64,000 bases of DNA from an uncultured Candidatus Saccharibacteria bacterium (lineage in GTDB: Bacteria > Patescibacteriota > WWE3 > 2-01-FULL-39-13): positions 86,359 through 150,358 of the forward strand of contig CAYJKF010000003.1 of the NCBI GenBank assembly GCA_964370865.1, read 5' to 3'. The notes beneath the pieces are model-generated. The model saw only the letters and a list, made by a program, of their open reading frames with translations. It was not told the origin of the DNA and ran no database searches. A program made the translations under genes and the position numbers. The number at the start of each line of letters is the position of its first letter. Position 1 is the stretch's first letter. Shown here piece by piece: positions 6,021-28,982 of this stretch.

Positions 6021-6029
6021 TTAGCTTGA

Positions 6030-6512: not shown

Positions 6513-6578
6513 ATAAATTTAGTGTACAGATTAAGCGAAGGATAGGCAAATGTATTCTAAAAATTCAAAAATTTTCAA

Positions 6579-6935: not shown

Positions 6936-6970
6936 AGTTTAAGTGTAACACTCAAATCAGTGCTACAATG

Positions 6971-7450: not shown

Positions 7451-7539
7451 ACGATTATTATAGCTAAGAAAATTATTAGCAGGTCCATGTAAAAAATATG
7501 TGTTGACATTGTTCTCTTATGATGTTGAGATATATGTAA

Positions 7540-10500
7540 GTGAAGAAGAATATTGTCAGGCTATTATCATTTGTTGGGTTTTTATTTATTTGTGCCAATA
7601 GCGCTGTCGCTGCTTCGACTCCAACTGTTACAAATTTCACACCACTTTCAACTTCAGTTGGAACCTTTCAAAAATTCGAAGCAAATTTTACTATTTCGCA
7701 AACATTTCCAACTGATTCACTTCTACCATATTATTTTTATGACCCTGCCGATAATTCTGCTACAGACCCAGGAAGAAATTCACCATATGGCATAGATGGA
7801 ATTTCAGTTGATGTACATTTTACTGCTCCTTCAGGAAAAACATTAGTAGTCCCTGCATTTTATTATCAAGACTATTCAAGAACAGGTTCTTATAGTTCAG
7901 GCATAACTTTAACTCCAACAAATAATTTTAACTGGAAAGTAAGATTTGCACCAAGCGAAGTAGGATTTTACGACTATTATGTAACTATTACTGATAAAAA
8001 TGGAACCACAAGATATCCAACAGCAAACAGTATGCAATTGACCGCAACTTCATCATCCTCAAAAGGATTTATTAAAGTTTCGGCACAAGACAAACGGTTT
8101 TTAGAGTTTACTAACGGTGACGCGTTTATCCCAGTCTCTAGTGGAAAACAGTGGTGGTCATGTTGCGGAAAAAGAAGTTTCGATTTCGAGAAAACCTTTA
8201 CTGATTTCGGTTTAAACGGTGTTAACTTTACAAGAATTTGGGATCAAAATGATGGATATGGTTTGACTGTTGAAGGAAAATATGATGGATACAAATATCC
8301 GGATGATTACCCTCCAATTGATACAGGTGTAAATATTGATGCAATACAAAAGGGAACTCAATTTAACCAAAGAGGAAACTATGAAGAAGATAAAATAATT
8401 GAGTCAGCAGAAAAGAATGGCGTTTATATACAACTTACATCTCACGGAGATCCATATTGGATTTGGGACGGTTCTACATATGATGAATCATGGAATAAAA
8501 CACCACAAATTTTTGGAAGCCAAAGACATTTAAGTTATTGGAAAAGAAACTTTAGATATAGAGTCGCACGTTGGGGATATTCTACAAGTGTTTTCGGGTG
8601 GGAAGCGTGGAATGAACACGGACACATTACTCCAGGAATGGATATCTATAATTTTTATTCCAAATATAGTAGTTATCAATTGCAAACAGATCCTTATAAA
8701 CATCTGAGAACCACCTCACAAGGATCACAGGCATTCAGTCCTGCATTCTGGTCGTCAGGATTTTTCGATGTAGCAAATTATCATAACTACATGATGGGTT
8801 GGTTTTCATCCGATTTAAAAAACGATGAGGCAAATTTTGTTTATAGGCAGGCTTGGTGTTTACGAGACATCACAAAACTTACTTCGGGAAGTTCTTACTG
8901 CAATGATCTAGGTTTGGGTGATGGAACAAAATGGTCTACAACCTTTGGTAACATGCCTTGGGTTTGGGGCGAAATTGACGTCGGTACAAATACTTGGAAT
9001 GAACCTAATCCACTTACAAAAACAGGTGAAGGAAGAGTTAGAATGTTGCACAATTTAGCTTGGTCCGGACTTTTCTCTCCTCTTGGTACGACACCAATAG
9101 ATTGGTATTGGGAAGGTGAAGATGTAAGTACAATTGCCAATAAACTTACTCAGAAAAAAGCGGTGTCTTCGTTTTTTAAAGATATTAAATATGATGATAA
9201 CCAAATGGTGTATACGATGAGTACTTCAGATACACCTCCAGGGTATATAGGCGAAACGGTTGACGTTACGAATTCTGCAATTCGGGTTTACGCGATGAAG
9301 AGTGCAAATAAACAATATGTTTATGGATGGATACAAAACAAAAATAATACTTGGGCCAACTCTGCTTCTACCACTTCTCCAATAAATGGAAAAGCTACTT
9401 TTAAAGGTTTGGGAACAAGCTCCTATAAGGTCGAAATATGGAATACGTATACTGGTCAAATAACTTCAAGCACAGTTATGACTCCTGTTAATGGATTGTT
9501 GGATATTAATGTCTCAAATCTTACGAATGATTTTGCTGTGAAAATGATCTCGACAAATATTACACCAACTCCTACACCTACTCCAACGCCAATTCCATCA
9601 CCAACCCCAACTCCCGTTACAAGTCCTACGCCTACACCGACACCTGCTATAACTGCAACTCCAACACCTACTGTTACTCCAAGTGCAATTGGGGATGGCG
9701 ATGTTAATGGTGACAGCACTGTAAGTACTATTGATATTACGACTCTTTTAAATAATTGGAATTCAACGATTTCAAGTAGTACTGACCAGTATCGAGATGG
9801 TAAAGTTAATGGCTTAGATTTTGCTGTTGTCGCATCTGCTTTAACAGCAGTTACACCTACACCGAGTCCTACACCAACAATTACACCAACGCCAACTCCT
9901 GTCGTTACACCAACGCCTACACCAGTTCCAACACCGACCCCGATACCTGAAGCCACTTCGGGTAGCTGGAACCAATTTGGAGGTAATGCTCAAAGAACAA
10001 ATTTTACATCTCAAACAGTTCAAACACCATGGAGGTTTAAGTGGCAATGGAATGGTTCTGATGCAAATGGTCAACCTCAATCGAATCATTTATCAGTACA
10101 AGATTTGGTACAACCCGTATCAGGAGGATCAAGAGTTTATATCGTAGCAAATAACACAGTCTATGCACTTGATAAAAATAGTACTAATAAAGTAAATGGA
10201 ACTGTCTTGTGGTCAAAGAGTGGTCTCGGCAATTTAAATTCTACTGTCGCTTATGCAAACGAATTCGTATATGTCACTTCATCAAATGGATTACAGAAAC
10301 TAGATGCATCTAATGGCTCGGTTGCGGGCACTTATAATGCAAATAGTGATTTGAAATTTGCGCCACTAATTAATGGTAACAATGTGGTTGTAGCAGCTGA
10401 TAATGGACATTTAATTGCTATTGATAAGAATTCATTAAGTAAAGTGTGGGAGTATGCTCCTACATCTTCTAGTACATCGGCAACAACAGCATCATACTCG

Positions 10501-12030
10501 GCTAGTAAAAATGTTTATGTGTATATTACTCAAGACTTAAAAGTTCATGCAGTGAATGGTACAAACGGTAGTCTCAAGTGGATTCGTAAACCAACTGTTA
10601 GAAATTACGGAGATCCAAGTACTACTAATAAATCTTTAGCTCAAGCCGAAGAAGGATGGCCAGTTATTGCAGAAAATCATGGTATTGTTTTTGTACGATA
10701 TAGATTAGATTGGCAAACACTTTGGGATGGACCAGCCGATAAAGCGACCTTCCCAGCTGACAATGCAACAGCTCGCAAATTCTTAGCTGATAATCCTGCT
10801 CAACAAGCTCTATTTGCTTTAAAACTTGATGATGGTGCTGATGCTTTCACAACACCACCAAATGCAGGAAATGGTGGCGCGGGTGATGGTGGTTACTTGC
10901 CAATGGGTCCGCAACCAATTGTACGTGTCGTGGATGGAAAAGAAGTCGCGTATATGCTCTTTAGAAATATTCAAACCTGCTCTAGGGAAAGTTGGTGTGA
11001 TGGAAGGGAAGACACCACGATGGGTGAGATGGTACTCGACAATTCTACTGTAACGGGGCTATCTGGTGGTGATGTCAGGTTCGTACAATGGAGTGATTCA
11101 AAGAATTATAATACCCCTCCAGCCGATCCTTACTACCATGATATGCAAACTGATGAAATGATGTATATCACTGGTTCAGGGGATACATTATTCCATAATC
11201 ACTGGCTTGCATCAGAAGCTTATACAATTACTGACAGAAGTTCAGGACTTGGTTTGAGTTATATTCAACCGATAAAGACTACTCATGCTCCTAATGTAAT
11301 TTGGAGACAGGTTTACTGCCCAACAAGCAATACTCAGTGTAATCCAGCGATTTATCCTGGTGGTACTGGTACGAATTATGGTCCTGCAAATTGTCCATTT
11401 AATGCATCAAGTCGATATTGCGCCAGTGGATTATATGGATATGGTGATTCTAGAGCTTATGCACCTGGATTTTATGAATATCATAATTCATATAACTCAA
11501 ATGATAATTCGAAACCATTTGTCGTTGTATCTGACGGACTTGTCCTAATAAAAACAAATGATGGTGCAGTTATTGCATTAGAAAACGGAAGTCCAACTGC
11601 ATCGATTTTTGCAGATACTATTCCTGAAAATGTGTTGGGAGCACAGACTGTTAGTGGACTTCCAGAATTTTCATACAGTGATGCCAAAGATCATATTGGT
11701 GAAAACATAGTTATAAAAGCTACTGTAGTTAGTGTAGAAAACAATATGCCAAAAGCGTATTACATTGGGTTTTCTGACAATCCTCATGAAACTTTTTTGG
11801 TTAGGGTATTTGCGAAAGATGTTTCAAAATTCGGCTATGATTTAAGTACACTTAAAGGAAAAACAATTAGGATTTCTGGAACACCAAGTTTATATTGGCC
11901 AGAAGGGAAAATCGCAGAATTGGTTGTAGATAGCCCAGAACAAATTTCAATTGTTGATGACTCTGTTGAGAATGAAAGCGGAGTTAAGAAGTTTATAAAA
12001 AATATTTTTGGAAAAAATGGAAAAAACTAG
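7540..12030 (+). CDS. Giant secreted modular protein: DUF5060-like Ig, then GH5/GH140-like clan GH-A catalytic domain, beta-sandwich, PT linker, type-I dockerin-like duplicate, PT linker, PQQ-type beta-propeller, C-terminal OB-fold
   Basis: GTG start with signal peptide MKKNIVRLLSFVGFLFICANSAVAAS. GH-A acid/base VFGWEAWNEHG and nucleophile VWGEIDVG. Dockerin segments DVNGDSTVSTIDITTLLNNW and DQYRDGKVNGLDFAVVASAL (about 9691-9843). Repeated ...YALDKNS/LIAIDKNS/VHAVNGTNGS propeller blades. OB-like ...IVIKATVVSVENN...GKTIRISGTPSLYWPEGK. Confidence 0.7.
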   Translation: MKKNIVRLLSFVGFLFICANSAVAASTPTVTNFTPLSTSVGTFQKFEANFTISQTFPTDSLLPYYFYDPADNSATDPGRNSPYGIDGISVDVHFTAPSGKTLVVPAFYYQDYSRTGSYSSGITLTPTNNFNWKVRFAPSEVGFYDYYVTITDKNGTTRYPTANSMQLTATSSSSKGFIKVSAQDKRFLEFTNGDAFIPVSSGKQWWSCCGKRSFDFEKTFTDFGLNGVNFTRIWDQNDGYGLTVEGKYDGYKYPDDYPPIDTGVNIDAIQKGTQFNQRGNYEEDKIIESAEKNGVYIQLTSHGDPYWIWDGSTYDESWNKTPQIFGSQRHLSYWKRNFRYRVARWGYSTSVFGWEAWNEHGHITPGMDIYNFYSKYSSYQLQTDPYKHLRTTSQGSQAFSPAFWSSGFFDVANYHNYMMGWFSSDLKNDEANFVYRQAWCLRDITKLTSGSSYCNDLGLGDGTKWSTTFGNMPWVWGEIDVGTNTWNEPNPLTKTGEGRVRMLHNLAWSGLFSPLGTTPIDWYWEGEDVSTIANKLTQKKAVSSFFKDIKYDDNQMVYTMSTSDTPPGYIGETVDVTNSAIRVYAMKSANKQYVYGWIQNKNNTWANSASTTSPINGKATFKGLGTSSYKVEIWNTYTGQITSSTVMTPVNGLLDINVSNLTNDFAVKMISTNITPTPTPTPTPIPSPTPTPVTSPTPTPTPAITATPTPTVTPSAIGDGDVNGDSTVSTIDITTLLNNWNSTISSSTDQYRDGKVNGLDFAVVASALTAVTPTPSPTPTITPTPTPVVTPTPTPVPTPTPIPEATSGSWNQFGGNAQRTNFTSQTVQTPWRFKWQWNGSDANGQPQSNHLSVQDLVQPVSGGSRVYIVANNTVYALDKNSTNKVNGTVLWSKSGLGNLNSTVAYANEFVYVTSSNGLQKLDASNGSVAGTYNANSDLKFAPLINGNNVVVAADNGHLIAIDKNSLSKVWEYAPTSSSTSATTASYSASKNVYVYITQDLKVHAVNGTNGSLKWIRKPTVRNYGDPSTTNKSLAQAEEGWPVIAENHGIVFVRYRLDWQTLWDGPADKATFPADNATARKFLADNPAQQALFALKLDDGADAFTTPPNAGNGGAGDGGYLPMGPQPIVRVVDGKEVAYMLFRNIQTCSRESWCDGREDTTMGEMVLDNSTVTGLSGGDVRFVQWSDSKNYNTPPADPYYHDMQTDEMMYITGSGDTLFHNHWLASEAYTITDRSSGLGLSYIQPIKTTHAPNVIWRQVYCPTSNTQCNPAIYPGGTGTNYGPANCPFNASSRYCASGLYGYGDSRAYAPGFYEYHNSYNSNDNSKPFVVVSDGLVLIKTNDGAVIALENGSPTASIFADTIPENVLGAQTVSGLPEFSYSDAKDHIGENIVIKATVVSVENNMPKAYYIGFSDNPHETFLVRVFAKDVSKFGYDLSTLKGKTIRISGTPSLYWPEGKIAELVVDSPEQISIVDDSVENESGVKKFIKNIFGKNGKN
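9556..9700 (+). repeat. Pro-Thr linker-encoding simple repeat (ACNCCN)n; a second copy lies at about 9841-9952
   Basis: Translates to [16 protein letters not shown]... The antisense strand gives a spurious GVGV ORF. Confidence 0.8.
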
Positions 12031-13699
12031 AATTATACAAAAAGCAGATTTTTATCGAATAGTAAAATTTTCAATGTCTGGTTTACTATCAATTCTTGCT
12101 GGAATCGGTATTGCAAATAGTGCTTTACTTCCTGATGCACCTATTGGAAGTTCACTTAAATTACCTGAAATTTATAATGCGACAGTAAACACTGAGTTTA
12201 GTGTTCCAGTCACTGTAAATACAAATGGAACCCCTGTCGTTGCAATAGATTTTAATTTGAATTTTCCAAAAGAAAAACTTCAGCTTATGCGAATTTCTCC
12301 ATCAGCAACCTTACCAACAACTTTAACCTTTACGCCTTCTTGGTCTCAGATTGTAAATACTGCTAATCAAACTGGAAATCTTTCATTTACTGTTCTAACT
12401 TTTGATACAACAAAATCTACGGTTACAGAGCCAATTGATTCAACAAATGATTTGGTTATAGCGAACTTAATTTTTACACCTTTAGTAGTTAGCCAAGCTG
12501 AAGTAAGTTGGCTCTATTCATATGAATTAACTACTGATAGCAATGTAATAAGTGCAGGTGAGCCCAAAGATATATTAAATAGCGTAACAAGCATGCTAGT
12601 TGTTACAAGTGATCCAACTCCAGTACCAACACCAACACCAACACCAACTCCTGTCCCAACTATATTACCTGATGATACACAAGAAATAACAAATCCAGGG
12701 TTTGAAAATACTTTAACTGGATGGCAAGTATCTGGAACATCTGTAGTTCAGACAGCTCATTCAGGAACAAATGCTGCCAAATTGACTAATACATCAGCAT
12801 ATATTTCACAAAATATCGCTTCGAAATTAAAAGAAAATCAGGCATATGTCTTTTCAGCCTACGTTAAGGTCTCAAAAGCTGGTACAAGCTGGGGTGTTCC
12901 TACTCTACGTTTAAGTAAATATAAGGATTTGGGTAGTTCTGATTTTGGTCAGGCGTTATCTGTAAACAAGGTAGACAGCAATTGGCAACAAATTAAGGTA
13001 ACGAAGACTTTCACGTCATCTGAATTATCTTCAGGGGTCTATGTTGGTATACGTAATTTTGGATTTGATGGAGAATCAATTATAGATGATTTTTCAGTAA
13101 CACAATCAGTCACACCTAGCCCAACACCTACTCCAACAGCTACACCTACGCCAACGGCTACACCAACACCAACACCAACACCTACACCAACGGCAGTGCC
13201 AACTCCAGCTACCATAACTTTAACTGGAAGTATTGTTAATCAAGATGGAGATCAATATACTTCCACAAAGAGCTGGATAGGTACAGGGGCAAATGCATCT
13301 TCTAGCTACACAGGTATTAGATTTGCTGGTGTTAAACTCCCTGCAAATGCAAAGATTCAATCTGCTTTACTAGAAGTAAAAGCGTCTACTACGGAATGGA
13401 TTTTGGTTTCAGTTTCAATAAATGGTGAGAATAGTGGAGATTCTTCAAGATTCTCAAGTAAATCGTTACCAGCATCAAGAAGTCTTACACAGGCTAATGC
13501 TGCTTATTCAAGTGACAGTCAGTGGACTAGTGGGAGTTGGAATAAACTCGATGATATAAGTTCTATTGTGCAGTCAATTGTAAATCGTCAGGATTGGAAA
13601 TCAGGAAATGCACTTAGCATAATAACTAAGGGTACTGGTACAGCTTACGGGCGAAAATCTATAAATGGTGCAAGATTGATCATAACATATACGCAATAA
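12008..13699 (+). CDS. Membrane-anchored modular protein: cohesin-like domain, PT linker, CBM4/9-like carbohydrate-binding module, PT linker, C-terminal beta-rich domain X
   Basis: Overlaps the upstream gene by 23 nt. TM at aa about 20-40. Cohesin-like strands ...FSVPVTVNTNGTPVVAIDFNLNFPKEKLQLMRISPS... CBM signature QEITNPGFENTLTGWQVSG...NFGFDGESIIDDF. Confidence 0.55.
   Translation: MEKMEKTRIIQKADFYRIVKFSMSGLLSILAGIGIANSALLPDAPIGSSLKLPEIYNATVNTEFSVPVTVNTNGTPVVAIDFNLNFPKEKLQLMRISPSATLPTTLTFTPSWSQIVNTANQTGNLSFTVLTFDTTKSTVTEPIDSTNDLVIANLIFTPLVVSQAEVSWLYSYELTTDSNVISAGEPKDILNSVTSMLVVTSDPTPVPTPTPTPTPVPTILPDDTQEITNPGFENTLTGWQVSGTSVVQTAHSGTNAAKLTNTSAYISQNIASKLKENQAYVFSAYVKVSKAGTSWGVPTLRLSKYKDLGSSDFGQALSVNKVDSNWQQIKVTKTFTSSELSSGVYVGIRNFGFDGESIIDDFSVTQSVTPSPTPTPTATPTPTATPTPTPTPTPTAVPTPATITLTGSIVNQDGDQYTSTKSWIGTGANASSSYTGIRFAGVKLPANAKIQSALLEVKASTTEWILVSVSINGENSGDSSRFSSKSLPASRSLTQANAAYSSDSQWTSGSWNKLDDISSIVQSIVNRQDWKSGNALSIITKGTGTAYGRKSINGARLIITYTQ
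12678..13105 (+). repeat. Inverted-repeat copy A (CBM module cassette); partner at 20768-21200
   Basis: Central roughly 300 nt essentially identical to the reverse complement of 20880-21120 (1 mismatch seen in about 240 nt checked). Identity decays at both edges. Confidence 0.85.
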
Positions 13700-13724
13700 C
13701 TGAAAGTCTAACTTCAATCAGGTA

Positions 13725-14987
13725 ATGAATATCTTTAAGAAATACCTAAAAAAACTAGGACCTGGCTTTATTACCGGTGCCTCAGATGATGATCCATCTG
13801 GCATTGCAACATATTCACAAACTGGGGCGTTATTTGGTTATAATCAACTTTGGACAGCCCTTTTTTCCTTTCCTTTCATGACCGTCATCCAGGAAATGTG
13901 TGGGAGAATTGGAATAGTAACAGGCAAAGGTTTAGCTGGAGTTATTCGATTACATTACTCAAAGTCAGTTTTGTATTTTGCTGTTTTTATTCTTATTCTT
14001 GCCAATACGGTTAATATAGGCTCCGACCTTGGCGCAATGGCATCCTCCGCGCAGCTCATAATACCACTTCCTTTTCCAGTTTTACTTATCTTTATCACCA
14101 TAATCTGTTTACTCCTTCAAGTTTTTGTATCGTACCACGTCTATGCTAGTATATTAAAATATTTTACGTTTTCACTTCTTGCATATGTAATTACGGTCTT
14201 TGTTCTTAAACAAGATTGGTCGTTAGCTCTGATTTCAACCGTTTTTCCAACTTTCAGTATCACGAAGCAATATCTCCTAAACATCGTTGCAATACTTGGT
14301 ACTACAATCTCACCGTATCTATTTTTCTGGCAAGCCAGCGAAGAAGTGGAGGAGGAGGTTGAGAAAGGTAAGCTAAAAAGTATGGGAGCTGGTATACCAA
14401 AATTTACCAAAAGGGATATTAAAGATCTTAGATTTGACACGATCGTAGGAATGTTTTTTTCGAATATAGTGATGTACTTCATAATTCTTACGACGGCTTC
14501 CACACTGGGACAACATGGCATAACAGACATACAAACCGCCGATCAAGCTGCACAAGCACTGCAGCCGCTAGCTGGACCATTTGCCTCATTACTTTTTACC
14601 GTTGGTATTATTGGGACAGGACTTTTAGCTGTTCCTGTCCTTGCAGGCTCTGCTTCATACGCACTTTCTGAAACTTTTGGGTGGAAAGAAGGGTTATATC
14701 GAAAATTCAAACAAGCTCATGGGTTTTATGGGATCATCACAATTGCAACACTATTAGGCCTGCTCATTAACTTCACGTCTATTCCACCATTTAAAATGCT
14801 TTACTACACAGCAGTATTAAATGGAATTTGCGCACCACCACTAATGATACTAATTTTGCTAATCTCAAATAATGGAAAAATTATGAAAGGCTACACTAAT
14901 GGAAAGTTTTCTAATGTTATGGGGTGGATTATTACAATACTAATGTCTGTCTCTGCCACTGCTCTTATCGCAACCTTTCTTTTCTGA
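13725..14987 (+). CDS. NRAMP-family divalent metal cation transporter
   Basis: GPGFITGASDDDPSGIATYSQTGALFGY (Nramp DPGN-region variant). Multi-TM. Confidence 0.7.
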   Translation: MNIFKKYLKKLGPGFITGASDDDPSGIATYSQTGALFGYNQLWTALFSFPFMTVIQEMCGRIGIVTGKGLAGVIRLHYSKSVLYFAVFILILANTVNIGSDLGAMASSAQLIIPLPFPVLLIFITIICLLLQVFVSYHVYASILKYFTFSLLAYVITVFVLKQDWSLALISTVFPTFSITKQYLLNIVAILGTTISPYLFFWQASEEVEEEVEKGKLKSMGAGIPKFTKRDIKDLRFDTIVGMFFSNIVMYFIILTTASTLGQHGITDIQTADQAAQALQPLAGPFASLLFTVGIIGTGLLAVPVLAGSASYALSETFGWKEGLYRKFKQAHGFYGIITIATLLGLLINFTSIPPFKMLYYTAVLNGICAPPLMILILLISNNGKIMKGYTNGKFSNVMGWIITILMSVSATALIATFLF

Positions 14988-15043
14988 TGTTGGTTAGTAG
15001 TTATGTTGGGGTAAAGGATTATCTTAGGAATTTTTAAAACAAT

Positions 15044-15086
15044 GTGAGACCGTGTTATCGACTTTCGTCAAAAAACACGGTCTCAC
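15044..15086 (-). terminator. Stem-loop (13-bp perfect stem GTGAGACCGTGTT/AACACGGTCTCAC) followed on the minus strand by a T-run; terminator of the island gene at 15108-15614 and left border of GC-rich island 1
   Basis: Perfect inverted repeat read from the sequence. Lies between convergent genes. Confidence 0.5.
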
Positions 15087-15107
15087 TACCGCGAATCGTG
15101 GAAACTA

Positions 15108-15614
15108 CTAGCCCCACGGCAATACGGTAAAGTACTTCCAGTTACACTCCCAACGCCCCGCACCGGGAGGTAACAAATAGGGATACCACATGCACTCCTC
15201 GTAGACCAATGAGACCCTGATATGTTTTGGAATCTGGATGATATTTCCAACTTCAGGTTCCCCTGGAGGAGTGTCAACTGGTCGGTATGGGTATACTGTA
15301 ATCTCCCGTTCTAAGTCGCTGGCTATGACTCTATCAACACGAATCCTGTTTGGGTAGTATTCTCCCGTAATTGGATCCTGCCAAACCTCAGTTCCCGACT
15401 CGGAACCATCCCGAAGCCAAAATACAACATGCTTAGCTCGAATCTCGGTCCGTGTCCACCCCGCAACGATTGGTGCAAATATACGATACAACTGTCCTGG
15501 GGTCGGTTCCGGTGTTTGCAGAGGTTCCTGCGCCTGAGCTGTCATAGGAACAATCCCTATTACGACAACCGCCAAAATCTTTATTATAAGATACAGCAAC
15601 TTCGATCTCATCAT
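15108..15614 (-). CDS. Hypothetical secreted protein (GC-rich island 1)
   Basis: Signal peptide. Roughly 50% GC versus about 35% in flanks. Canonical SD AGGAGGG (15616-15622) immediately upstream. The true start is probably the second ATG (15611). Confidence 0.6.
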   Translation of the reverse strand: MMRSKLLYLIIKILAVVVIGIVPMTAQAQEPLQTPEPTPGQLYRIFAPIVAGWTRTEIRAKHVVFWLRDGSESGTEVWQDPITGEYYPNRIRVDRVIASDLEREITVYPYRPVDTPPGEPEVGNIIQIPKHIRVSLVYEECMWYPYLLPPGAGRWECNWKYFTVLPWG

Positions 15615-15823
15615 ACCCTCCTGTGTGAAAATAATGTGCTAAAGCCGCGTTGGCTTGAGTGAGATTATATCAATAACACCTAAATTGTCCTAATTGACGC
15701 TGACTTAAAATTTAAACATGATAGTGAAGAGGTATCAAAAGCCGTGGTGAGTCTCAGAGTTCAAATCTGGAACACCTAATTCAAAATTAATAACATAATC
15801 CGAAAAAATATATATTGATTGAT

Positions 15824-15875
15824 AAAAAAGATTGGGAACCGGTCGATTGCTTGTTAGCATATTCGACCGGTCCCC
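15824..15875 (-). terminator. Rho-independent terminator for the 15885-16232 gene
   Basis: Stem GGGAACCGGTCGA/TCGACCGGTCCCC (1 mismatch) followed on the minus strand by TCTTTTTTATC. Confidence 0.55.
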
Positions 15876-15884
15876 GGCTAGAGG

Positions 15885-16232
15885 TTAGTTCAGCCATCCA
15901 TGATTTGCTGAGCCAGCCTCAAGCGTCGCGGCCACCATCTGGCTTATTTCGTCCTTTATCAGGCCGATTTGCAATGCGTTAAGCACTGTGGAGGCGTTGA
16001 TTCGCCGATCCCCTTCGGGGAACACTACTGTTACAGCCGACATTATTCCATGCTCCTGACATGCAATAATGCCTGTAAAGGCAAATTCTGTTGCGCTTTG
16101 TGGTAACAGCCTTTGAACCAGCGATATACTCTCGTCGCAAATTACGCAATCCGCTAGGCGACATTCACCCGATGTAATCTCCTTTCCAATTACTACAACA
16201 ACCGCCATGAGCGACATTTTCCCTTTACACAT
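15885..16232 (-). CDS. Hypothetical protein (GC-rich island 1)
   Basis: About 48% GC. SD AAGGGAG 8 nt upstream of the ATG. TTGACA-N16-TATAAT promoter upstream. Confidence 0.55.
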   Translation of the reverse strand: MCKGKMSLMAVVVVIGKEITSGECRLADCVICDESISLVQRLLPQSATEFAFTGIIACQEHGIMSAVTVVFPEGDRRINASTVLNALQIGLIKDEISQMVAATLEAGSANHGWLN

Positions 16233-16291
16233 GTGAGAGTCTCCCTTGTGTGGGTTCGTGGCTAACCGCAGTTGGTTTGCTACGTTTTTTT

Positions 16292-16319
16292 ATTATATAT
16301 CCCATAGTTAGAGTGTCAA
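16292..16319 (-). promoter_or_regulatory. Putative promoter TTGACA (16319-16314) -N16- TATAAT (16297-16292) for the island gene at 15885-16232
   Basis: Consensus hexamers with 16-nt spacer read on the minus strand. Confidence 0.45.
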
Positions 16320-16479
16320 TACATCTGTATTTGGAGGACAATTCTAAAAATTAAAGCTATTGAACGAAAGTCTCATAATATTGAGACGATTGTGATTCAT
16401 GATGATATTTATTTTTCGGAACGCTCTATTAGCCTCATTTATCGCATAAAAAGATGATTTAAGATGTGTGAAAGACAAA

Positions 16480-16554
16480 TGGTGACCCTACGGGGAGTCG
16501 AACCCCGCTTTACAGGATGAAAACCTGCTGTCCTAACCGATAGACGATAGGGCC
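16480..16554 (-). tRNA. tRNA-Glu (anticodon TTC), CCA encoded
   Basis: Reverse complement GGCCCTA...GGACAGCAGG-TTTTCAT-CCTGT...CGGGG-TTCGACT-CCCCG-TAGGGTC-A-CCA folds as a cloverleaf. Confidence 0.85.
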
Positions 16555-16636
16555 ATTGTTTAAACGTAAACTTAGAAAGTATACCAAACAAAAAGCCCCT
16601 CATAAATGAGGGGCTTCGACGTTTTACTAAATATAA

Positions 16637-17323
16637 TTAGTTTCTTGTACCCATTACATCGAAATTTATTGCAACTTCATCCTCGACAGTATAAACATTA
16701 AGTAAATTTGGAGCTTTAATTCCAAAATCACTCATCTTAATTCTTGACTCACCACTAGCAATTAAAGCTTCAGGTGTAACGTTGTAGGTTACATTGAAAT
16801 CAACCTGTTTCGAAACTCCATTTATTGTAACGTTTAATGGTAAAACAGCTGTTTGATCTGTACCTTCTATCATCGTTAGATTAGTGAAATCTCCACTTAT
16901 AATAATATCCTTTTCACTAACATAATTTTGAAATAAATCAGAATCTCTTGTTGGGTTTCCAGTCGTAAAGTCTGAGAAACTAAAATTAGCTTCTACTCTC
17001 CCCATCATAGTTACTGGGTCGAAGTATCCATTACCTGCAATAGTAGTATTTACACCTTCAACATCAGAAGGACCAGTAGCAATAAATACTTTATTTGCAA
17101 TGTATTTGACAGTACCCTCCGTAATCGTGTATCGATAAGAGCCTTCAGGGGCATCAGATTGAGTTTCCTCAACCATCATTGTTTCTGTTTCAGTAACAAC
17201 CGAACTTTCATCCATCATGGTTGTTGCAGGAACTTCAGGGTTTTTATTAACCATATAAACTAATCCGCCGAATACGAGAACTCCCACGGCTGCAAGGAGG
17301 TAATACGTAGATTTTTGATCCAT
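16637..17323 (-). CDS. YceI-like (polyisoprenoid-binding) domain protein, membrane-anchored
   Basis: Start taken at internal ATG 17323 (MDQKSTYY...) to avoid overlap and fit the TM anchor. YceI motif FSFSDFTTGNPTRDSDLF. Confidence 0.6.
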   Translation of the reverse strand: MDQKSTYYLLAAVGVLVFGGLVYMVNKNPEVPATTMMDESSVVTETETMMVEETQSDAPEGSYRYTITEGTVKYIANKVFIATGPSDVEGVNTTIAGNGYFDPVTMMGRVEANFSFSDFTTGNPTRDSDLFQNYVSEKDIIISGDFTNLTMIEGTDQTAVLPLNVTINGVSKQVDFNVTYNVTPEALIASGESRIKMSDFGIKAPNLLNVYTVEDEVAINFDVMGTRN

Positions 17324-17341
17324 GAATGCTAATATAAACAA

Positions 17342-18541
17342 ATGGCTAACAAAACACAAATCATAATCGTGGGAGGAGGATTTGGGGGCGTAAGTACAGC
17401 ACAAACAATACTTAAGCAAAATTTAAATGTACAAATAACTTTAATAGATTTAAAAAACTACTTCTTATTCACACCACTTCTTCATGAAATCGCTACGGGA
17501 AGTCTCGACGAAAACCTTATCGTTACAGCTTATAAGCAAATCTTTAAAAAGAAACATGTAAATATATTAATTGGAGAAATTAAAGGGATAAACACTAGCA
17601 AGAAAACTATTTCCATTAATGACAATGATATTCCATATGACTTACTAATATTAGGTACAGGAGCTAAAGCAATCAAAGCTCCTTATAAAAGTAAAAATAT
17701 TATTGAATTAAAAACAATAGAAAACGGTATGCAAATTAAATCCATGATTCTGGACTTAATGGACTGTATTGATAGCGGTCAGCATAAAACCACCCAATTA
17801 CAATTCGCAGTTATAGGCGGGGGACCGACGGGAATTGAAATGGTTTTGGAACTAGCAGACTATATTAGAAATAGTTTGCTTACTATATATAGAAAATTGG
17901 ACCAAAACGACATACAAATTTACTTAATAACAAAAGAAGCGGACATTTTACTTAGGATGCACCCCAGTGTGCGAAAAATTGCACAAGATAGACTAAATGA
18001 ACTGGGAGTCGAACTAATTACTAATTGCGAAATTCACGATATACAGGACAACAAAATACATACAAATAATAAAATAATACAGTCGGATTTAATCGTATGG
18101 ACAGTTGGTGTTCAGGCACATTACCCATTACTTCCAGATAATATCGAACGAGATGAAAAAGGGAAGTTGATTGTGGATGATTTCTTAAAGTTAAATAATA
18201 GTAACTCAATTTATTGTGTAGGAGATCTAGTTTCTGGATACCCAATGGATGCTCAAGCTGCTACATGGCATGGAGAATATCTGGGCAACAATCTGGCACG
18301 GCTTCTAAAGAAAGAGAAAATGATATACAAGAAATATAAGCCACTAGGAGAGTTAATTTCTTTAGGAGGACAATATGCGGCAGGAAGGTCCTTTGGAATC
18401 ACAATGTCCGGCTGGATAGTCTGGTTTATATGGAGATCAACTTACTTCTTTAAAATCCCAACAATCAGAAAAAAGGTAGTCGTTGGGGTTAACTGGTTTC
18501 TTAACCTTTTCAGTACCAGGGATCTAACAAATCTTAAGTAA
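17342..18541 (+). CDS. ndh: Type II NADH dehydrogenase (NDH-2) / FAD-dependent pyridine nucleotide-disulfide oxidoreductase
   Basis: Two Rossmann motifs IIIVGGGFGGVSTAQ and FAVIGGGPTGIEMVLELA. C-terminal membrane-association segment. Confidence 0.8.
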   Translation: MANKTQIIIVGGGFGGVSTAQTILKQNLNVQITLIDLKNYFLFTPLLHEIATGSLDENLIVTAYKQIFKKKHVNILIGEIKGINTSKKTISINDNDIPYDLLILGTGAKAIKAPYKSKNIIELKTIENGMQIKSMILDLMDCIDSGQHKTTQLQFAVIGGGPTGIEMVLELADYIRNSLLTIYRKLDQNDIQIYLITKEADILLRMHPSVRKIAQDRLNELGVELITNCEIHDIQDNKIHTNNKIIQSDLIVWTVGVQAHYPLLPDNIERDEKGKLIVDDFLKLNNSNSIYCVGDLVSGYPMDAQAATWHGEYLGNNLARLLKKEKMIYKKYKPLGELISLGGQYAAGRSFGITMSGWIVWFIWRSTYFFKIPTIRKKVVVGVNWFLNLFSTRDLTNLK

Positions 18542-18559
18542 TTGAAGTTCAACAATCGC

Positions 18560-18591
18560 CCCTTATAGATATAGGTCTTTTCTGGTATAAT
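18560..18591 (+). promoter_or_regulatory. Possible extended -10 promoter (TGGTATAAT at 18583-18591) upstream of the RRM protein gene
   Basis: TGn-TATAAT element. -35 weak. Confidence 0.3.
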
Positions 18592-18712
18592 ATGGCTACT
18601 CTCTAAGCAGTAAGAAACCGTAAGTTACTCACCATGTTCCTTAACGTTTTCCCCTACTCTAGAAGTAAAAAAGTTAATTAAACATGAAGGCGGTGAATAA
18701 CAAAAAATAATA

Positions 18713-19051
18713 ATGGCTAAACTATATGTAGGCAATTTGCCTTATACTTACAATGAAAGTTCAATCCGAGATATGTTCTCAGGATTCCAAGAAATTCAAT
18801 CTGTCAGCTTGATAACCGATAAACAAACCGGTAGAAGCAAAGGATTCGGTTTCGTAGAATTAAGTGATGCAGATGCTGATAAAGCAATCGCAGAACTAAA
18901 TGGAAAAGATATCGGAGGAAGAACAGTAGTCGTATCTATCGCTAGACCTATGGAAGACCGTCCAAGAAGAGATTTCGGAGGCGGAGGAAATAGTAGAGGT
19001 GGTGGATTCGGTGGAGGAAACAGAAGTGGTGGATTTAATAGAAGAGGATAA
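18713..19051 (+). CDS. RRM-type glycine-rich RNA-binding protein
   Basis: RNP-2 LYVGNL and RNP-1 KGFGFVEL. C-terminal RGG/GGF-rich tail. Confidence 0.85.
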   Translation: MAKLYVGNLPYTYNESSIRDMFSGFQEIQSVSLITDKQTGRSKGFGFVELSDADADKAIAELNGKDIGGRTVVVSIARPMEDRPRRDFGGGGNSRGGGFGGGNRSGGFNRRG

Positions 19052-19066
19052 AGAATCGGTTGAATA

Positions 19067-19102
19067 CTGTATAAAGGAAGAGGTCGCTTATAGCGACCTC
19101 TT
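19067..19102 (+). terminator. Rho-independent terminator (11-bp perfect stem GAAGAGGTCGC/GCGACCTCTTC plus TTGTTTTTA)
   Basis: Perfect hairpin plus U-run directly after the RRM gene. Confidence 0.7.
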
Positions 19103-19140
19103 CTTGTTTTTATCAAGCAACATCGTTAGACAAGATGCTT

Positions 19141-21921
19141 TTAATTTGGGACGTGAACGGTACCACCACCATCGCTAAACCTTCTTTGTAAAGCTCGGTC
19201 ATTCAAAGTTGAGCAAACCGATAATTTACATATATCAGCTTCAACAGATGAAATCATCTGTTTAAGTCCGGAAGTAAACTTAGTTGTCACGGCATTGCCT
19301 CCGAGAGGATCAGTCCACCATACTTGAGCACCACCTGAATTTGATACACGATTTCGTCCAAAGTAAGTTGTTCTCTTTAAACCTTTAAATGGGGAGCTTG
19401 GCGAATCCCAAGCGGTATTTCCACCTCCACATTCTGCTAAACGTGGCGAATAAGTTCCTGGTATTCTTAATAATCCTTCACATTCCTCTGAGGTATATCT
19501 ATAATCTTTTTGCCAAGATCGAGTAGGATGTCGATATCCAATGTCTATTAATCTTACAGGGTCTAGTACATCCCATTGTCTACCATGCTCGGCTAGCATT
19601 TTTCCAGATGGCGTAGTAATTCTTAAATCACCCTGCCAAATTTCATACGGGTTGAAATATTTAGTAGCAGTTCCTAAACTTTCCAAACAAGCGACATCAG
19701 TCATGTTACGACCCAAAGTATCACTATATACACTATTTGGAAGTCTACTTAATAACGGGTCAGTGAGTGTACAGCTCGCTCCTGGAACTGGAACCATTTC
19801 ATAGCCATTATATGTAGCAATTAGTTTGCCATCTAAACCGCATATATCGTTAAACCGACTTTGTCCACAAAATCTTTTATAGATACCTGGATCTCCAAAA
19901 GTCATCATTCCAGTTAATAAAACGACATTTTTAGGATATAATTTGCTCGCATTTAATCCATTTACATCTACACTCATACAACTTGAGTGGAATATAACCT
20001 CGTGTAAATTATTTAAGATTGCATCACCAGAGTGAGTTCCTTGATGAAATTTATGTAAATGGGTACATACAACCCCAGTTGGACTATATACGGAGGAACC
20101 ATATGGAATATTCACTCCAACTGTTCCAGCTAATTGCGCCATCGGATGGGTTGTGTTTCCAACCAGATCGGATTCATTGTTAGCAATCTCGATTTTATGA
20201 CCCACATGGTCTTCATGTCGAACAAATACAGAATCCTGTTGATCCTGATTATAATACAAATCCATGTGTTCATTGGATATACCAAATGGTATTCCAGCTC
20301 TATCTCCGGGGGAAATTACTCCCGCTGCAGATATAACTAAAGGACTAATAACACCGTCCCCATTTTGATCTATACCAAAATGTCTTACGATATCATTCCA
20401 GTAAATATAACTTTGCGGATTTGAACCATGTTCATGACCAAAATAACATCTACCACTTCCTGTAATTGGGTTTGTAACGACTGGCGGATGCCAGGTAGGG
20501 TATTTTAGTCCATCATAAGCAACTACATAGTATTGATTATGAGCATCGACTACATTTGTACCATCGTCACATTTATCATATCGACTATTTGGTATATTTT
20601 TTCCATTTGGGCCCCAAGCCATCATTGCCATACTCTCACCTGCAACAGGCTCCATTCCTCCAATATGCGTTGGCATTGGAGTCGGTGTAGGAGTAATTAC
20701 TGGAGTTACCGTAACTACTGGAGTTGGAGTTATCATAGGTGTGGGAGTTGGAGTTGGGCTAGCAGTACCAGATTCTGTTACTAAAAAATCATCTACAACT
20801 GACTCTCCATCAAACCCAAAATTACGTATACCAAGATAAACGCCTGAAGATAATTCAGATGACGTGAAAGACTTTGTTACCTTAATTTGTTGCCAATTGC
20901 TGTCTACCTTGTTTACAGATAACGCCTGACCAAAATCAGAACTACCCAAATCCTTATATTTACTTAAACGTAGAGTAGGAACACCCCAGCTTGTACCAGC
21001 TTTTGAGACCTTAACGTAGGCTGAAAAGACATATGCCTGATTTTCTTTTAATTTCGAAGCGATATTTTGTGAAATATATGCTGATGTATTAGTCAATTTG
21101 GCAGCATTTGTTCCCGAATGAGCTGTTTGAACTACAGATGTTCCAGATACTTGCCATCCTGTTAAAGAATTTTCAAAACCTGGATTTGTTATTTCTTGTG
21201 TACCACTAGGAGTTGGTGTTGGAACGGGTGTCGGAGTAGATGTTGGAACCGGCGTTGGTGTCATAGTCGGTTCTGCCACATTGGAGGAAAACTCAACTAA
21301 TAATTTTGTTTTATCTCCTGTACCTATAAATTTTCTAGCGTAAGGGTTGCCAGTTCCTTTAAGGATAACCATGATGCTTTTTCCAGGTTCCCATGCCTCA
21401 TTATTTACAATTTGTTGGATAGCATTTTCTAATCCACCAACTTTGTACCTCTTTCCAGAAATCCATTTTTCATTTTTTGAATAGGCTAGACTTGAAGAAT
21501 ATGCACTATTATATGAACTTTCAACTCCACTATCAGAATTTTCAACGATCTTTGCTCTAGCTACAAAACTTGTTTCAATCCACTGGTTAGTAGGGGAGGT
21601 AAATTCAATTGAAGCGCCTTTAACTGAAGAACCTTTTACTACTTGAACATTATTAAACATTAAAACGGTATATGAATTATCCTTGCTTTCACCATTTCCA
21701 ATCCATGGGTTAGAGGTTGTCATATTACCAGCATCTTGATTAGATACTGCAACTGAGTTAGCTGATATTTTCTCAACACTTTGTGCAAATATTCTTGAAA
21801 AAAATGGGTTACCGGATGTTTTGAAATCGTATGCAAGAAATGCGATAGCGAGGAGCCCCCAAACAATCATTACGCCTGTCATTAATTTATCGACTTTAGG
21901 TTGTTGAGTTTTCTTTTGCAT
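19141..21921 (-). CDS. Large membrane-anchored secreted modular protein: domain X', PT linker, CBM4/9-like module (near-identical to that of 12008-13699), PT linker, roughly 500-aa His/Cys-rich C-terminal domain of unknown (possibly metal-dependent hydrolytic) function
   Basis: N-terminal TM. CBM QEITNPGFENSLTGWQVSG... C-terminal domain rich in HxH/Hxx motifs (FGHEHG, HEDHVGHK, HLHKFHQGTH). Confidence 0.6.
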   Translation of the reverse strand: MQKKTQQPKVDKLMTGVMIVWGLLAIAFLAYDFKTSGNPFFSRIFAQSVEKISANSVAVSNQDAGNMTTSNPWIGNGESKDNSYTVLMFNNVQVVKGSSVKGASIEFTSPTNQWIETSFVARAKIVENSDSGVESSYNSAYSSSLAYSKNEKWISGKRYKVGGLENAIQQIVNNEAWEPGKSIMVILKGTGNPYARKFIGTGDKTKLLVEFSSNVAEPTMTPTPVPTSTPTPVPTPTPSGTQEITNPGFENSLTGWQVSGTSVVQTAHSGTNAAKLTNTSAYISQNIASKLKENQAYVFSAYVKVSKAGTSWGVPTLRLSKYKDLGSSDFGQALSVNKVDSNWQQIKVTKSFTSSELSSGVYLGIRNFGFDGESVVDDFLVTESGTASPTPTPTPMITPTPVVTVTPVITPTPTPMPTHIGGMEPVAGESMAMMAWGPNGKNIPNSRYDKCDDGTNVVDAHNQYYVVAYDGLKYPTWHPPVVTNPITGSGRCYFGHEHGSNPQSYIYWNDIVRHFGIDQNGDGVISPLVISAAGVISPGDRAGIPFGISNEHMDLYYNQDQQDSVFVRHEDHVGHKIEIANNESDLVGNTTHPMAQLAGTVGVNIPYGSSVYSPTGVVCTHLHKFHQGTHSGDAILNNLHEVIFHSSCMSVDVNGLNASKLYPKNVVLLTGMMTFGDPGIYKRFCGQSRFNDICGLDGKLIATYNGYEMVPVPGASCTLTDPLLSRLPNSVYSDTLGRNMTDVACLESLGTATKYFNPYEIWQGDLRITTPSGKMLAEHGRQWDVLDPVRLIDIGYRHPTRSWQKDYRYTSEECEGLLRIPGTYSPRLAECGGGNTAWDSPSSPFKGLKRTTYFGRNRVSNSGGAQVWWTDPLGGNAVTTKFTSGLKQMISSVEADICKLSVCSTLNDRALQRRFSDGGGTVHVPN
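20768..21200 (-). repeat. Inverted-repeat copy B (CBM module cassette); partner at 12678-13105
   Basis: See copy A. Confidence 0.85.
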
Positions 21922-22027
21922 ATATAGATAAGACTCTATATTAGAGTGTTACAAAAAGTCAACAATAGAAATTTTCAGAGAGGGTTTGCAAAATTGCAAA
22001 TCCTCTCTGGAATCGGTGCTTTGATAC

Positions 22028-22567
22028 TTATTTATCACTAAAGGCTGAAAAGTCATTTTGTAACATCTTGACTGTATTGTCTAAATCTACAAGTGCTTCT
22101 TCAGATTTATCTTCTATATTCTCTATAAGTCTGTCGATATTTGATAATACAGAATCAGATACTTGCTTCAAATCTCCAGTAGCATCATTGTATTGAGCTC
22201 TAAAATTGTCTCTAGAATTTCTTAAATCCTCAAGTGACTCATCTGTTAAAGAATTCTCTGCAATATCTACTCTTAAAGCAATCAATCTTGCTTCAAGCTC
22301 CATTCTAGCGGCTGCTTGCGCTGAGGACTCCTTAATTTCTTGAGTTACCTTATTGAGATCTTCTCCAATATCCATAGTTGTTTCTTTTGTTTCATCAACT
22401 ACGGTTCTGCTCGTATTTGCAATATCTTCATTTAAGTTTGATCCTGTTCTGTTATATGCCATTACTGCGATAGGCAAAGCAATAACAGATAGTACCAAAG
22501 AAATCCATGAGATTAGTGCAACACCTTTCAATCTGTTTTCTAATTGAGTTAAATCCATAATTTTCAC
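22028..22567 (-). CDS. Membrane-anchored coiled-coil protein, hypothetical
   Basis: TM at aa about 15-37. Charged helical remainder. Confidence 0.5.
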   Translation of the reverse strand: MKIMDLTQLENRLKGVALISWISLVLSVIALPIAVMAYNRTGSNLNEDIANTSRTVVDETKETTMDIGEDLNKVTQEIKESSAQAAARMELEARLIALRVDIAENSLTDESLEDLRNSRDNFRAQYNDATGDLKQVSDSVLSNIDRLIENIEDKSEEALVDLDNTVKMLQNDFSAFSDK

Positions 22568-22591
22568 CTCCTATATGTAAAATTAAATAAA

Positions 22592-22622
22592 ATAGATGGC
22601 GATGCGTAGCATCGCCATCTAT
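22592..22622 (-). terminator. Rho-independent terminator (14-bp perfect stem ATAGATGGCGATGC/GCATCGCCATCTAT) for the GlsB-like gene
   Basis: Hairpin followed on the minus strand by TTTATTTAATTT. Confidence 0.65.
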
Positions 22623-22628
22623 TAGTTG

Positions 22629-22892
22629 TTAAGCTTTTACAGCCTTATATAGTACAACCAATATAACCGAACCTAATATGGCTACTAGTACACTGTATAA
22701 GTTAAAACCTGACACACCATCATATCCGAGGAATCTCATTATAAATCCTCCGACAAGTGCTCCTGCAATACCTAATAAAATATTTGTAAGCGGTCCCTGT
22801 TGAGCATCTGTGTTCATCATAATTGATGTTAACCAGCCAACAAGGGCTCCAAATAATATCCAAATTAATAAACCTACCATAGTAAAATTCAC
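22629..22892 (-). CDS. GlsB/YeaQ/YmgE-family (transglycosylase-associated) stress membrane protein
   Basis: 87 aa. GALVGWLTS...GIAGALVGGFI glycine-zipper TM pattern. Confidence 0.7.
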   Translation of the reverse strand: MNFTMVGLLIWILFGALVGWLTSIMMNTDAQQGPLTNILLGIAGALVGGFIMRFLGYDGVSGFNLYSVLVAILGSVILVVLYKAVKA

Positions 22893-23027
22893 CTCCTCAT
22901 TTAAATAATTTACTTATAGAGGAACTATAACGATGCCAAATGTGATTTTTATGAAGGAATTGTAAGAATTAATTAAGTGACAAGGGTATAATAATAAGGT
23001 ATTAAATGATTTGTTATAACAGGCACA

Positions 23028-23702
23028 ATGAAAAACACCATACTAATTATCGAAGACGATAAAGAACTAGCCAAGTACATCCAAACAATATTAATAGAAA
23101 GTGGCCGAAAATCAGCAATAAGTCATACAGGAATGGATGCACTTAAAAAACTTAAGGATGGTTTTGAACCAGACCTTATACTACTGGATTTAGTTCTTCC
23201 AGATATACAAGGTGAAGATCTTGCTCTACAAATAATAAATCTACTACCGTCTACTCAAGTAGTTATGCTTACTTCAAAAGCAGGACCTGAGAATATTGTC
23301 AAAGGGTTCCAACTAGGTGCAACGGATTACATTGTTAAACCATTTAACCGTGAAGAGCTTTTAGCCAGACTAGATGCTAGGCTAAATGACAATTCCAGCA
23401 ATATAATAGTCACTATTCCGTCGTTATCAATTGATAAAGCGAAAGTAGAGGTAAAAGTTAATAACAAAATAATTGACCTGACAAAATTAGAATACAATTT
23501 ATTATTACACCTCTCCAACAATCCAGATAAAGTTTTATCAAGGGAATCTATTCTAAATAAAGTCTGGGATTTTCCACTGGATGTAGAGTCTAGAGTTGTT
23601 GATGTTTACATAGGGTACTTACGAAAAAAATTAAAAAAGGCTGGAGCAAAAGTTACTATCAAATCGGTCAGGGGCTTTGGTTATAAGATCACGAAGATTT
23701 AA
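23028..23702 (+). CDS. OmpR-family response regulator (receiver plus winged-helix)
   Basis: ILIIEDD...DLILLDLVLPD receiver. C-terminal trans_reg_C-like ...VYIGYLRKKL. Confidence 0.85.
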   Translation: MKNTILIIEDDKELAKYIQTILIESGRKSAISHTGMDALKKLKDGFEPDLILLDLVLPDIQGEDLALQIINLLPSTQVVMLTSKAGPENIVKGFQLGATDYIVKPFNREELLARLDARLNDNSSNIIVTIPSLSIDKAKVEVKVNNKIIDLTKLEYNLLLHLSNNPDKVLSRESILNKVWDFPLDVESRVVDVYIGYLRKKLKKAGAKVTIKSVRGFGYKITKI

Positions 23703-24237: not shown

Positions 24238-24263
24238 ATTACTTTATAATAGTAGGATTAAAC

Positions 24264-26688: not shown

Positions 26689-26731
26689 ACAAATTATGGT
26701 AGTAAGCGGTATTCTAAAGTTTTTTATTAAC

Positions 26732-28624: not shown

Positions 28625-28686
28625 TACCTCTTTATAGCAAATACCCGACAGAATAACAATTTATATCTTAGATTTGTGAATAACAA

Positions 28687-28929: not shown

Positions 28930-28982
28930 CTGCCATTTTTAAATTGCAGGAAATTGGCAATGGGAGACTAAGAGTAGGTATA

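Follow-up and report, generated by a model that had tools for sequence, protein, structure and literature searches.

A carbohydrate-binding module shared by two genes on opposite strands

The 64-kb stretch of Patescibacteria DNA analyzed here (hereafter the window; positions 86,359 to 150,358 of contig CAYJKF010000003.1) harbors an inverted repeat, each arm of which encodes a carbohydrate-binding module (CBM) of the CBM_4_9 type. The arms lie within two surface-protein genes on opposite strands, gene A and gene B. The module is native to gene A and was copied into the inter-domain linker of gene B. We consider it quite probable that this copy from A to B was recent and that B-type sequence came to occupy the core of arm A of the window later, either through gene conversion or through an assembly chimera. 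The first-pass annotation, made from the letters of the sequence, had proposed that a CBM was shuffled, or transferred by gene conversion, between these opposite-strand genes, a proposal that our results support and to which they add a direction, with gene A as the owner and gene B as the recipient.

Gene A encodes an N-terminal membrane helix, a cohesin-fold domain of ~160 amino acids (aa), a Pro/Thr linker, the CBM, a second Pro/Thr linker, and a beta-sandwich domain of ~165 aa (domain X), in this order. Gene B encodes an N-terminal membrane helix, a domain related to domain X (domain X'), a Pro/Thr linker, the CBM, a further Pro/Thr linker, and a His/Cys-rich C-terminal domain of ~500 aa. 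The elements of the repeat and its two genes, in window coordinates, are (nt, nucleotides; ORF, open reading frame):

12017..13699, + strand: gene A, 560 aa from an ATG; 563 aa from a TTG at 12008 (ORF)
12611..12676, + strand: Pro/Thr linker upstream of arm A; low complexity; holds the left edge of the copied unit
12677..13109, + strand: arm A, ancestral and donor copy of the module, in gene A (CBM_4_9, Pfam PF02018; aa 224-367 of the 563-aa product)
12764..13002, + strand: core of arm A, 100% identical to arm B, 239 nt; maximum replaced tract
12834..12973, + strand: minimum replaced tract in arm A; 8 sites that are B-type in the window and A-specific in six other assemblies
13110..13210, + strand: Pro/Thr linker that follows arm A; holds, in its first ~25-45 nt, the right edge of the copied unit
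13110..20768: segment between the arms, 7.66 kb, with genes for an Nramp protein, two small GC-rich ORFs, tRNA-Glu, YceI, NDH-2, and an RNA recognition motif (RRM) protein
19141..21921, - strand: gene B, 926 aa (ORF)
20656..20768, - strand: Pro/Thr-rich linker of gene B that joins the CBM to the C-terminal domain
20769..21201, - strand: arm B, acquired copy of the module, in gene B (CBM_4_9; aa 241-384), flanked by domain X' and the C-terminal domain
21202..21276, - strand: Pro/Thr linker between domain X' and the CBM of gene B

That a near-identical CBM-encoding repeat lies inverted on opposite strands was borne out by a repeat finder, which placed the arms at 12632-13155 and 20723-21246 (524 nt, 91% complementarity), and by self-BLASTN of the window, a check that had been suggested together with the observation and that aligned 12614-13142 with 21258-20736 (529 nt at 90.9%, E=0). 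This inverted pair is the only long repeat in the window, which has a guanine-cytosine (GC) content of 36%. The repeat proper comprises 12677-13109 (+) and 20769-21201 (-), 433 nt each, and its edges are sharp at the domain boundary. The outer ~45 nt on each side of the longer alignments encode Pro/Thr linkers, which are 64-75% identical between the arms, and unrelated Pro/Thr linkers within the window show a mutual identity of 67-82%. An extension of the homology into the linkers was therefore rejected, and the true repeat corresponds to exactly one protein module.

A codon-by-codon comparison of the arms, spanning 429 nt (143 codons), gave a nucleotide identity of 96.3% for the window arms, and 136 of 143 aa (95%) are identical. 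The differences are confined to the flanks, with 5 to the left and about 12-13 to the right of a core at 12764-13002 (mirror 20876-21114) that extends over 239 nt with 0 mismatches and whose edges are set by mismatches at 12763 and 13003. At the mismatch rate of the flanks, the probability of a 239-nt core free of mismatches is ~5e-11. The first-pass annotation had given 1 mismatch in about 240 nt compared.

Both copies exceed the PF02018 (CBM_4_9) cutoff of 25.9 bits, with 34.9 bits for gene A and 33.8 bits for gene B, and the family is matched by 7 of the 9 members of the A family. In an AlphaFold (AF2) model compared by Foldseek, the CBM of gene A is a CBM16/CBM22-like beta-sandwich (template modeling (TM) score 0.70-0.75), with matches that include the CBM16 structure 2zey (TM 0.75) and the CBM22 structures 4xup and 4xuo. 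The domains around the module had been described as divergent or unrelated, and they are: domains X and X' are only 30% identical, and a cohesin fold in gene A stands against a His/Cys-rich domain in gene B.

The module is native to gene A

The distribution of the module among relatives identifies its owner. All eight relatives of gene A have the architecture cohesin-like domain, CBM, domain X. Their CBM identities are 78% (P0052), 55% (P0060), 53% (P0106), 51% (P0107 and P0059), 50% (P0061), 49% (L006), and 46% (L007), declining in step with the identity of the flanking domains; for the sister species, the CBM is 78% and the flanks are 84% and 71% identical. Used as a database query, gene B retrieved 57 full-length relatives and 1 partial one that share the C-terminal domain at 28-74% identity, and none of these about 58 proteins carries the module. 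Their architectures are domain X, linker, and C-terminal domain, or a dockerin or short N-terminus followed by the C-terminal domain. A few have other inserts, namely two fn3 domains, a GH5-like region, or a small domain of ~70 aa. Furthermore, in a neighbor-joining tree of the CBMs, the B copy is sister to the A copy of its own genome and lies within the A clade, with the A copy of the sister species branching next. Since all A relatives carry the module, no B relative does, and the tree agrees, the module is native to gene A and was copied from A to B. Inserts of ~120 aa in some B relatives were also considered as degenerate CBMs and rejected, as they have no Pfam match and reach an hhalign probability of 0.8%.

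Divergence at silent sites gives the relative age of the copy. Determined by the Nei-Gojobori method, with gene A represented by the common allele of the population, synonymous divergence (dS) between arm A and arm B is 0.17, with a ratio of nonsynonymous to synonymous divergence (dN/dS) of 0.16. Arm A and its sister-species orthologue differ by a dS of 0.98 at a dN/dS of 0.15, and dS between the copies and the orthologue ranges over 0.98-1.23. On synonymous sites, the A-B divergence is thus ~1/6 of the species split. As silent sites are conserved between the arms as well, the high identity reflects a recent copy and not selection, though both copies are under purifying selection. The dS of 0.17 could mark either the time of the insertion or the latest complete homogenization of an insertion that is older.

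This comparison of synonymous with nonsynonymous change had been recommended by the first-pass annotation, which named two ways in which the repeat might mislead: an old shared module held alike by strong purifying selection, or a collapsed or chimeric assembly artifact comprising the whole repeat. We give practically no credence to either. Selection is excluded as the source of the identity by a dS that is far lower between the copies than to the orthologue while dN/dS is the same. An artifact of the whole repeat is refuted by independent assemblies that recover both arms in the same unique contexts, arm A at 52×.

Three points weigh against the history preferred here. First, gene B of the sister species (L005) is syntenic and in the same orientation, with a C-terminal domain that is 94% identical, but the contig covers 272 aa of that domain before it ends, and the Logan contigs are shorter. 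Because the N-terminal half of this gene lies beyond the contig end, it is possible that the insertion is older and was kept alike by repeated conversion, instead of being recent; a scan of JGI metagenomes with residues 40-400 of gene B gave no match. Second, the donor could be a third CBM copy elsewhere in the genome, beyond the 64 kb, and the silence of the protein database on such a copy is weak evidence, since the database lacks gene A of this organism. Third, the edges of the copied unit lie inside low-complexity linkers, in which they are not exactly mappable.

The perfect core of arm A is private to one assembly

The window was then set against other assemblies of the same population. 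The exact gene B protein occurs on 22 contigs, which come from many samples within a single ENA study, and six assemblies were compared with the window around arm A:

ERZ13692957, about 6×: window 9141-31921 compared
ERZ13692950, about 6×: window 9141-31921 compared
ERZ13692955, about 7×: window 11975-16737 compared
ERZ13692949, about 5×: window 11975-16737 compared
ERZ13693050, about 7×: window 12835-30954 compared
ERZ13693045, 52×: window 1-16020 compared

ERZ13692957 equals the window across 22.8 kb save for 8 single-nucleotide polymorphisms (SNPs), at 12834, 12856, 12862, 12868, 12889, 12895, 12925, and 12973, all of which fall within the perfect core of arm A. Each of the other assemblies has the same 8 differences (7 where the contig starts at 12835), and ERZ13693045 equals the window over 1-16020 save for these sites. 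The perfect core, which had been the main argument for a very recent event, is therefore private to this assembly, since six independent assemblies of the same population carry the 8 SNPs there. Moreover, the product of gene A as read in the window is not in the gene index, which lists the neighboring Nramp gene in 32 blocks, and exact look-ups of gene A with both starts and with the allele of the other assemblies returned no record from the gene index or the protein collection.

At all 8 sites, arm A of the window has the base of arm B, while the flank sites stay A-type (5 to the left, about 13 to the right). Of 7 informative sites, the A orthologue of the sister species shares the base of the other assemblies at 6, which identifies their allele as ancestral A and the core in the window as derived B sequence placed in arm A. 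Altogether, 26 sites separate the ancestral A arm from arm B, and the 8 switched ones are consecutive (P = 1.2e-5). The replaced tract measures 140-239 nt and lies between two identity blocks, the longest one (70 nt) and one of 29 nt. In the usual allele of the population, the arms are 94.4% identical, with the divergence spread roughly evenly along the module.

Two explanations can be offered for this tract. According to the first, which has a somewhat better than even chance in our view, the copy of the module is real and the 239-nt perfect core is a chimera of assembly or polishing, the true arms being those with 94.4% identity. A low-coverage short-read multi-k assembler may well have collapsed the bubbles formed by the A and B cores and filled arm A with B sequence. 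The window allele occurs in none of the six assemblies inspected, the one at 52× included, and is missing from the gene index; elsewhere, the window matches these assemblies base for base. Furthermore, contigs end inside arm A at 12818 and 12835, and the identity blocks bounding the tract would serve as shared graph nodes. The assembly whose contig ends at 12835 also has a 5-bp (base pair) deletion at the mirror site, 21040-21044. Less easily reconciled with a chimera is that all 8 sites switch jointly, in a clean, contiguous, and in-frame tract, and the length of the tract and its boundaries at identity blocks are equally expected of RecA-type conversion.

Alternatively, the tract may be a real and very recent gene conversion from B to A in the source strain or sample, with the arms still exchanging sequence (concerted evolution), a reading that we hold tentatively and regard as a serious contender. 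The polarity and contiguity of the 8 sites fit it, and a clean in-frame switch over 140-239 nt between identity blocks is of plausible length. A LexA homologue encoded in the window (about 44102-44719) suggests a RecA/SOS system, and small SNP clusters elsewhere, taken as real micro-diversity between population samples, speak for conversion as well. However, the tract is seen in 1 of at least 7 assemblies and never in indexed contigs, at a locus that is demonstrably error-prone in assemblies.

Both conversion and chimera predict a contiguous tract between identity blocks. For the core in the window, we lean slightly toward the chimera, since other assemblies break at exactly that spot. Caution is therefore warranted: the perfect core, private as it is to one assembly, should not serve as evidence of ongoing conversion or as a substrate for inversion before it is confirmed in reads.

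The 5-bp deletion, found in NODE_113 of ERZ13693050 (L004), splits gene B into ORFs of 301 aa and 602 aa (entries P0105 and P0001) and most likely represents a repeat-induced assembly error and not a pseudogene.

Assemblies of the population that are otherwise identical also differ by tight clusters of 3-11 SNPs, at 23022-23118, 25566-25602, 43569-43595, 8644-8868, 312-342, and 2194-2232, some of them near contig ends. Micro-diversity among strains, recombination tracts of imported sequence, or noise from assembly at low coverage could account for them.

No sign of inversion of the intervening segment

The first-pass annotation had further raised the possibility that recombination between the arms inverts the intervening segment of roughly 7.7 kb, and had suggested that both orientations be looked for. 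As a homologous-recombination switch, the inverted arms would allow a crossover within the CBM to invert 7.66 kb and to swap the C-terminal domains of the two proteins. The geometry permits this: a crossover simulated in the arms leaves two intact in-frame chimeras, one with a cohesin, CBM, and His-rich domain (909 aa) and one with domain X', CBM, and domain X (580 aa). If the conversion of the core is real, then the arms do pair, and the tract would be a non-crossover footprint of that pairing.

The check for both orientations, run on assembled contigs, gave the orientation of the window in every arrangement displayed for the roughly 22 contigs that were read, and the sister species (L005) has this orientation too. 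No chimeric protein occurs among the hits to genes A and B in 5.8 billion proteins, and the 90% cluster of gene B contains, apart from gene B itself, only the two fragments that stem from the frameshifted assembly. Among the genes called over about 37 kb around the locus, none belongs to a recombinase, integrase, or invertase Pfam family. Moreover, each gene is complete and has a start of its own, which sets the pair apart from known switches with their silent cassettes. There is hence no sign of inversion in these consensus assemblies, which are blind to a rare inversion, and we consider a switch very unlikely. If true, it would imply recombinase-free, domain-level shuffling of surface proteins (a cohesin scaffold and a His-rich surface enzyme) in a reduced genome of the candidate phyla radiation (CPR).

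Gene A and its dockerin-bearing neighbor

An AF2 model of gene A was built on seven family members, with a predicted local distance difference test (pLDDT) value of about 75-90 for its domains. For the match of the CBM fold given above, the domain pLDDT was about 80-89. Foldseek matched the N-terminal domain of this model to the type I cohesins 6kgc, 1g1k, and 4uyp (TM 0.70-0.74, E ~1e-8). On the sequence level, the relative P0106 matches Pfam Cohesin at 1.8e-5, while gene A of the window itself stays below Pfam significance. The gene upstream and its conserved pairing with gene A are as follows:

7540..12030, + strand: gene for a secreted protein of 1496 aa that carries a dockerin, a PQQ-type beta-propeller, and DUF5060; overlaps the start of gene A at its 3' end
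7540-13699 in the window, 5265-11524 in L006, 4761-11002 in L007, and 1-5383 in L005: pair of dockerin gene and gene A

The 1496-aa protein scores 32.8 bits for Pfam Dockerin_1 (cutoff 22.9) and 62.9 bits for PQQ_2. The pair, a dockerin gene encoding ~1500 aa followed by gene A, is kept in four other Patescibacteria genomes (L005-L008), and the overlap between the dockerin gene and the gene for the cohesin-fold domain, CBM, and domain X amounts to 10-14 nt across several Patescibacteria genomes. Given the modeled cohesin fold and the conserved overlapping dockerin gene, gene A looks like a single-cohesin mini-scaffoldin. Its cohesin likely has the 1496-aa dockerin protein as a candidate binding partner, and the conserved overlapping pair suggests a putative minimal cohesin-dockerin surface complex.

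Gene B, its C-terminal domain, and domain X

The C-terminal domain of gene B (aa 423-926; 19141-20655, - strand) has many invariant His and Cys residues and the motifs FGHEHG, RHEDHVGHK, and HKFHQGTHSGD, and it has no sequence match in Pfam, NCBIfam, or PDB. In the AF2 model of gene B, this domain reaches a pLDDT of ~90 and the domains flanking the CBM about 90-95. The CBM itself is low, because the alignment of 58 sequences gives it no support. Foldseek matches of gene B were restricted to the beta-sandwich parts. In relatives, the His/Cys-rich domain is very often fused to a dockerin or a domain X. It may represent an uncharacterized family of secreted metal-binding proteins in Patescibacteria (Woesebacteria, Levybacteria, and similar groups). 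Domain X is found in both genes:

13211-13696, + strand: domain X of gene A, a beta-sandwich of ~160 aa
21277-21786, - strand: the corresponding domain (X') of gene B, likewise a beta-sandwich of ~160 aa

This domain recurs, N- or C-terminally and often twice, in many large surface proteins of Patescibacteria and Chloroflexi (e.g., P0064-P0089). It is without a Pfam family and has a structural likeness to CBM22-like and Vip3 C-terminal domains.

Other features of the window

Between the Nramp gene and the gene for tRNA-Glu lies a GC-rich island (15040-16280, - strand; about 48% against a background of 36%). It consists of two similar units, each with a related 5' leader motif, a Shine-Dalgarno-like site and ATG, a small ORF, a strong hairpin, and a U-run terminator. 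Folding of the RNA gave z-scores of -4.1 and -4.6, with no Rfam match. Assemblies differ in their gene calls for the island, and in the sister species other genes occupy this place. The two ORFs are:

15108-15614, - strand: small ORF, 168 aa; no Pfam match
15885-16232, - strand: small ORF, 115 aa; no Pfam match

A further variable site, 48091-48152, is located in a gene for a DUF2298 membrane protein (46423-48369, - strand). Both sequence and length of this short stretch vary across all independent assemblies compared, with about 62 nt more in one of them, and the gene call is split in other assemblies. In its behavior it resembles a variable tandem repeat or a site that is unstable in assembly.

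Proposed history and function of the shared module

From the distribution, tree, and divergence given above, the following history can be proposed. Gene A, encoding a membrane-anchored protein with cohesin, CBM, and domain X, would have held its CBM_4_9 module since before the related species split. The coding sequence of the module, framed by Pro/Thr-linker repeats, would then have been copied into the single inter-domain linker of gene B, which is situated 7.7 kb off on the opposite strand and belongs to a family that otherwise combines domain X, a linker, and the His-rich domain, or a dockerin and the His-rich domain. Ectopic, non-reciprocal homologous recombination is a candidate mechanism, in which the ACN-CCN repeats encoding the linkers to either side of the module may have provided short homology to the one linker of gene B. 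Both copies have been kept functional since (dN/dS about 0.16), drifting to 94.4% nucleotide identity in the usual allele. A second, later event in the opposite direction would have brought the derived bases of arm B into the center of arm A, by conversion from B to A or through an assembler chimera.

As to function, the shared module would be predicted to target both membrane-anchored proteins to the same glycan. The proteins so targeted would be the His-rich protein and a cohesin scaffold to which the 1496-aa partner would be docked. For envelope proteins of Patescibacteria that contain domains of this kind, host-cell glycans have been put forward as targets (PMC10633639). The cell-surface biology of Patescibacteria and the CPR is largely unknown, and both the cohesin-dockerin pair and the dockerin-associated His-rich family may serve attachment to a host or to glycans. 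The locus also provides a polarized case of the gain of a binding module, in which donor, recipient, insertion site (a Pro/Thr linker), and relative age are readable from sequence. The event itself is ordinary module shuffling of a known kind, well resolved and in a CPR genome.

Comparison with known systems

A literature search for gene conversion of CBMs found nothing specific. The closest precedent is the carbohydrate-active enzyme (CAZyme) cluster of Caldicellulosiruptor bescii, in which all but one of the CBM3 modules are >99% identical across multidomain glycoside hydrolases (PMC3082886). There as here, a CBM between Pro/Thr-rich linkers has been duplicated nearly unchanged among neighboring modular secreted proteins, which in C. 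bescii is explained by intragenomic duplication or recombination. Unlike in C. bescii, there are only two copies in the window, in inverted orientation and in a small Patescibacteria genome, and the module is a CBM_4_9 instead of a CBM3. Furthermore, its partners are a cohesin and an uncharacterized His-rich domain and not glycoside hydrolases, and donor and recipient are resolved.

With regard to the exchange of sequence between the arms, the inverted paralogues tufA and tufB of Salmonella exchange short tracts non-reciprocally through homologous recombination and thereby stay more alike than their age predicts. In contrast to these, the genes studied here share a single domain and are otherwise unrelated, and there is one candidate tract, which may be an assembly artifact.

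The likeness to shufflons and to phase-variable hsdS genes lies in the presence of in-frame inverted repeats in two opposed coding regions, inversion of which would exchange C-terminal domains. Those systems differ in several respects: here, there is no dedicated recombinase, one orientation is found, both genes are full independent units, and the repeat is a whole 433-nt domain instead of a short recombination site.

Finally, gene A resembles cellulosomal scaffoldins in combining a type-I-like cohesin fold with a CBM and a further beta-sandwich beside a gene for a dockerin protein, and the many relatives of gene B that carry a dockerin ahead of the same C-terminal domain extend the likeness to cellulosomes. 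Unlike cellulosomal scaffoldins, gene A has a single cohesin-fold domain and belongs to a Patescibacteria bacterium, for which binding of host-cell glycans by such proteins is suspected (PMC10633639) instead of cellulose degradation.

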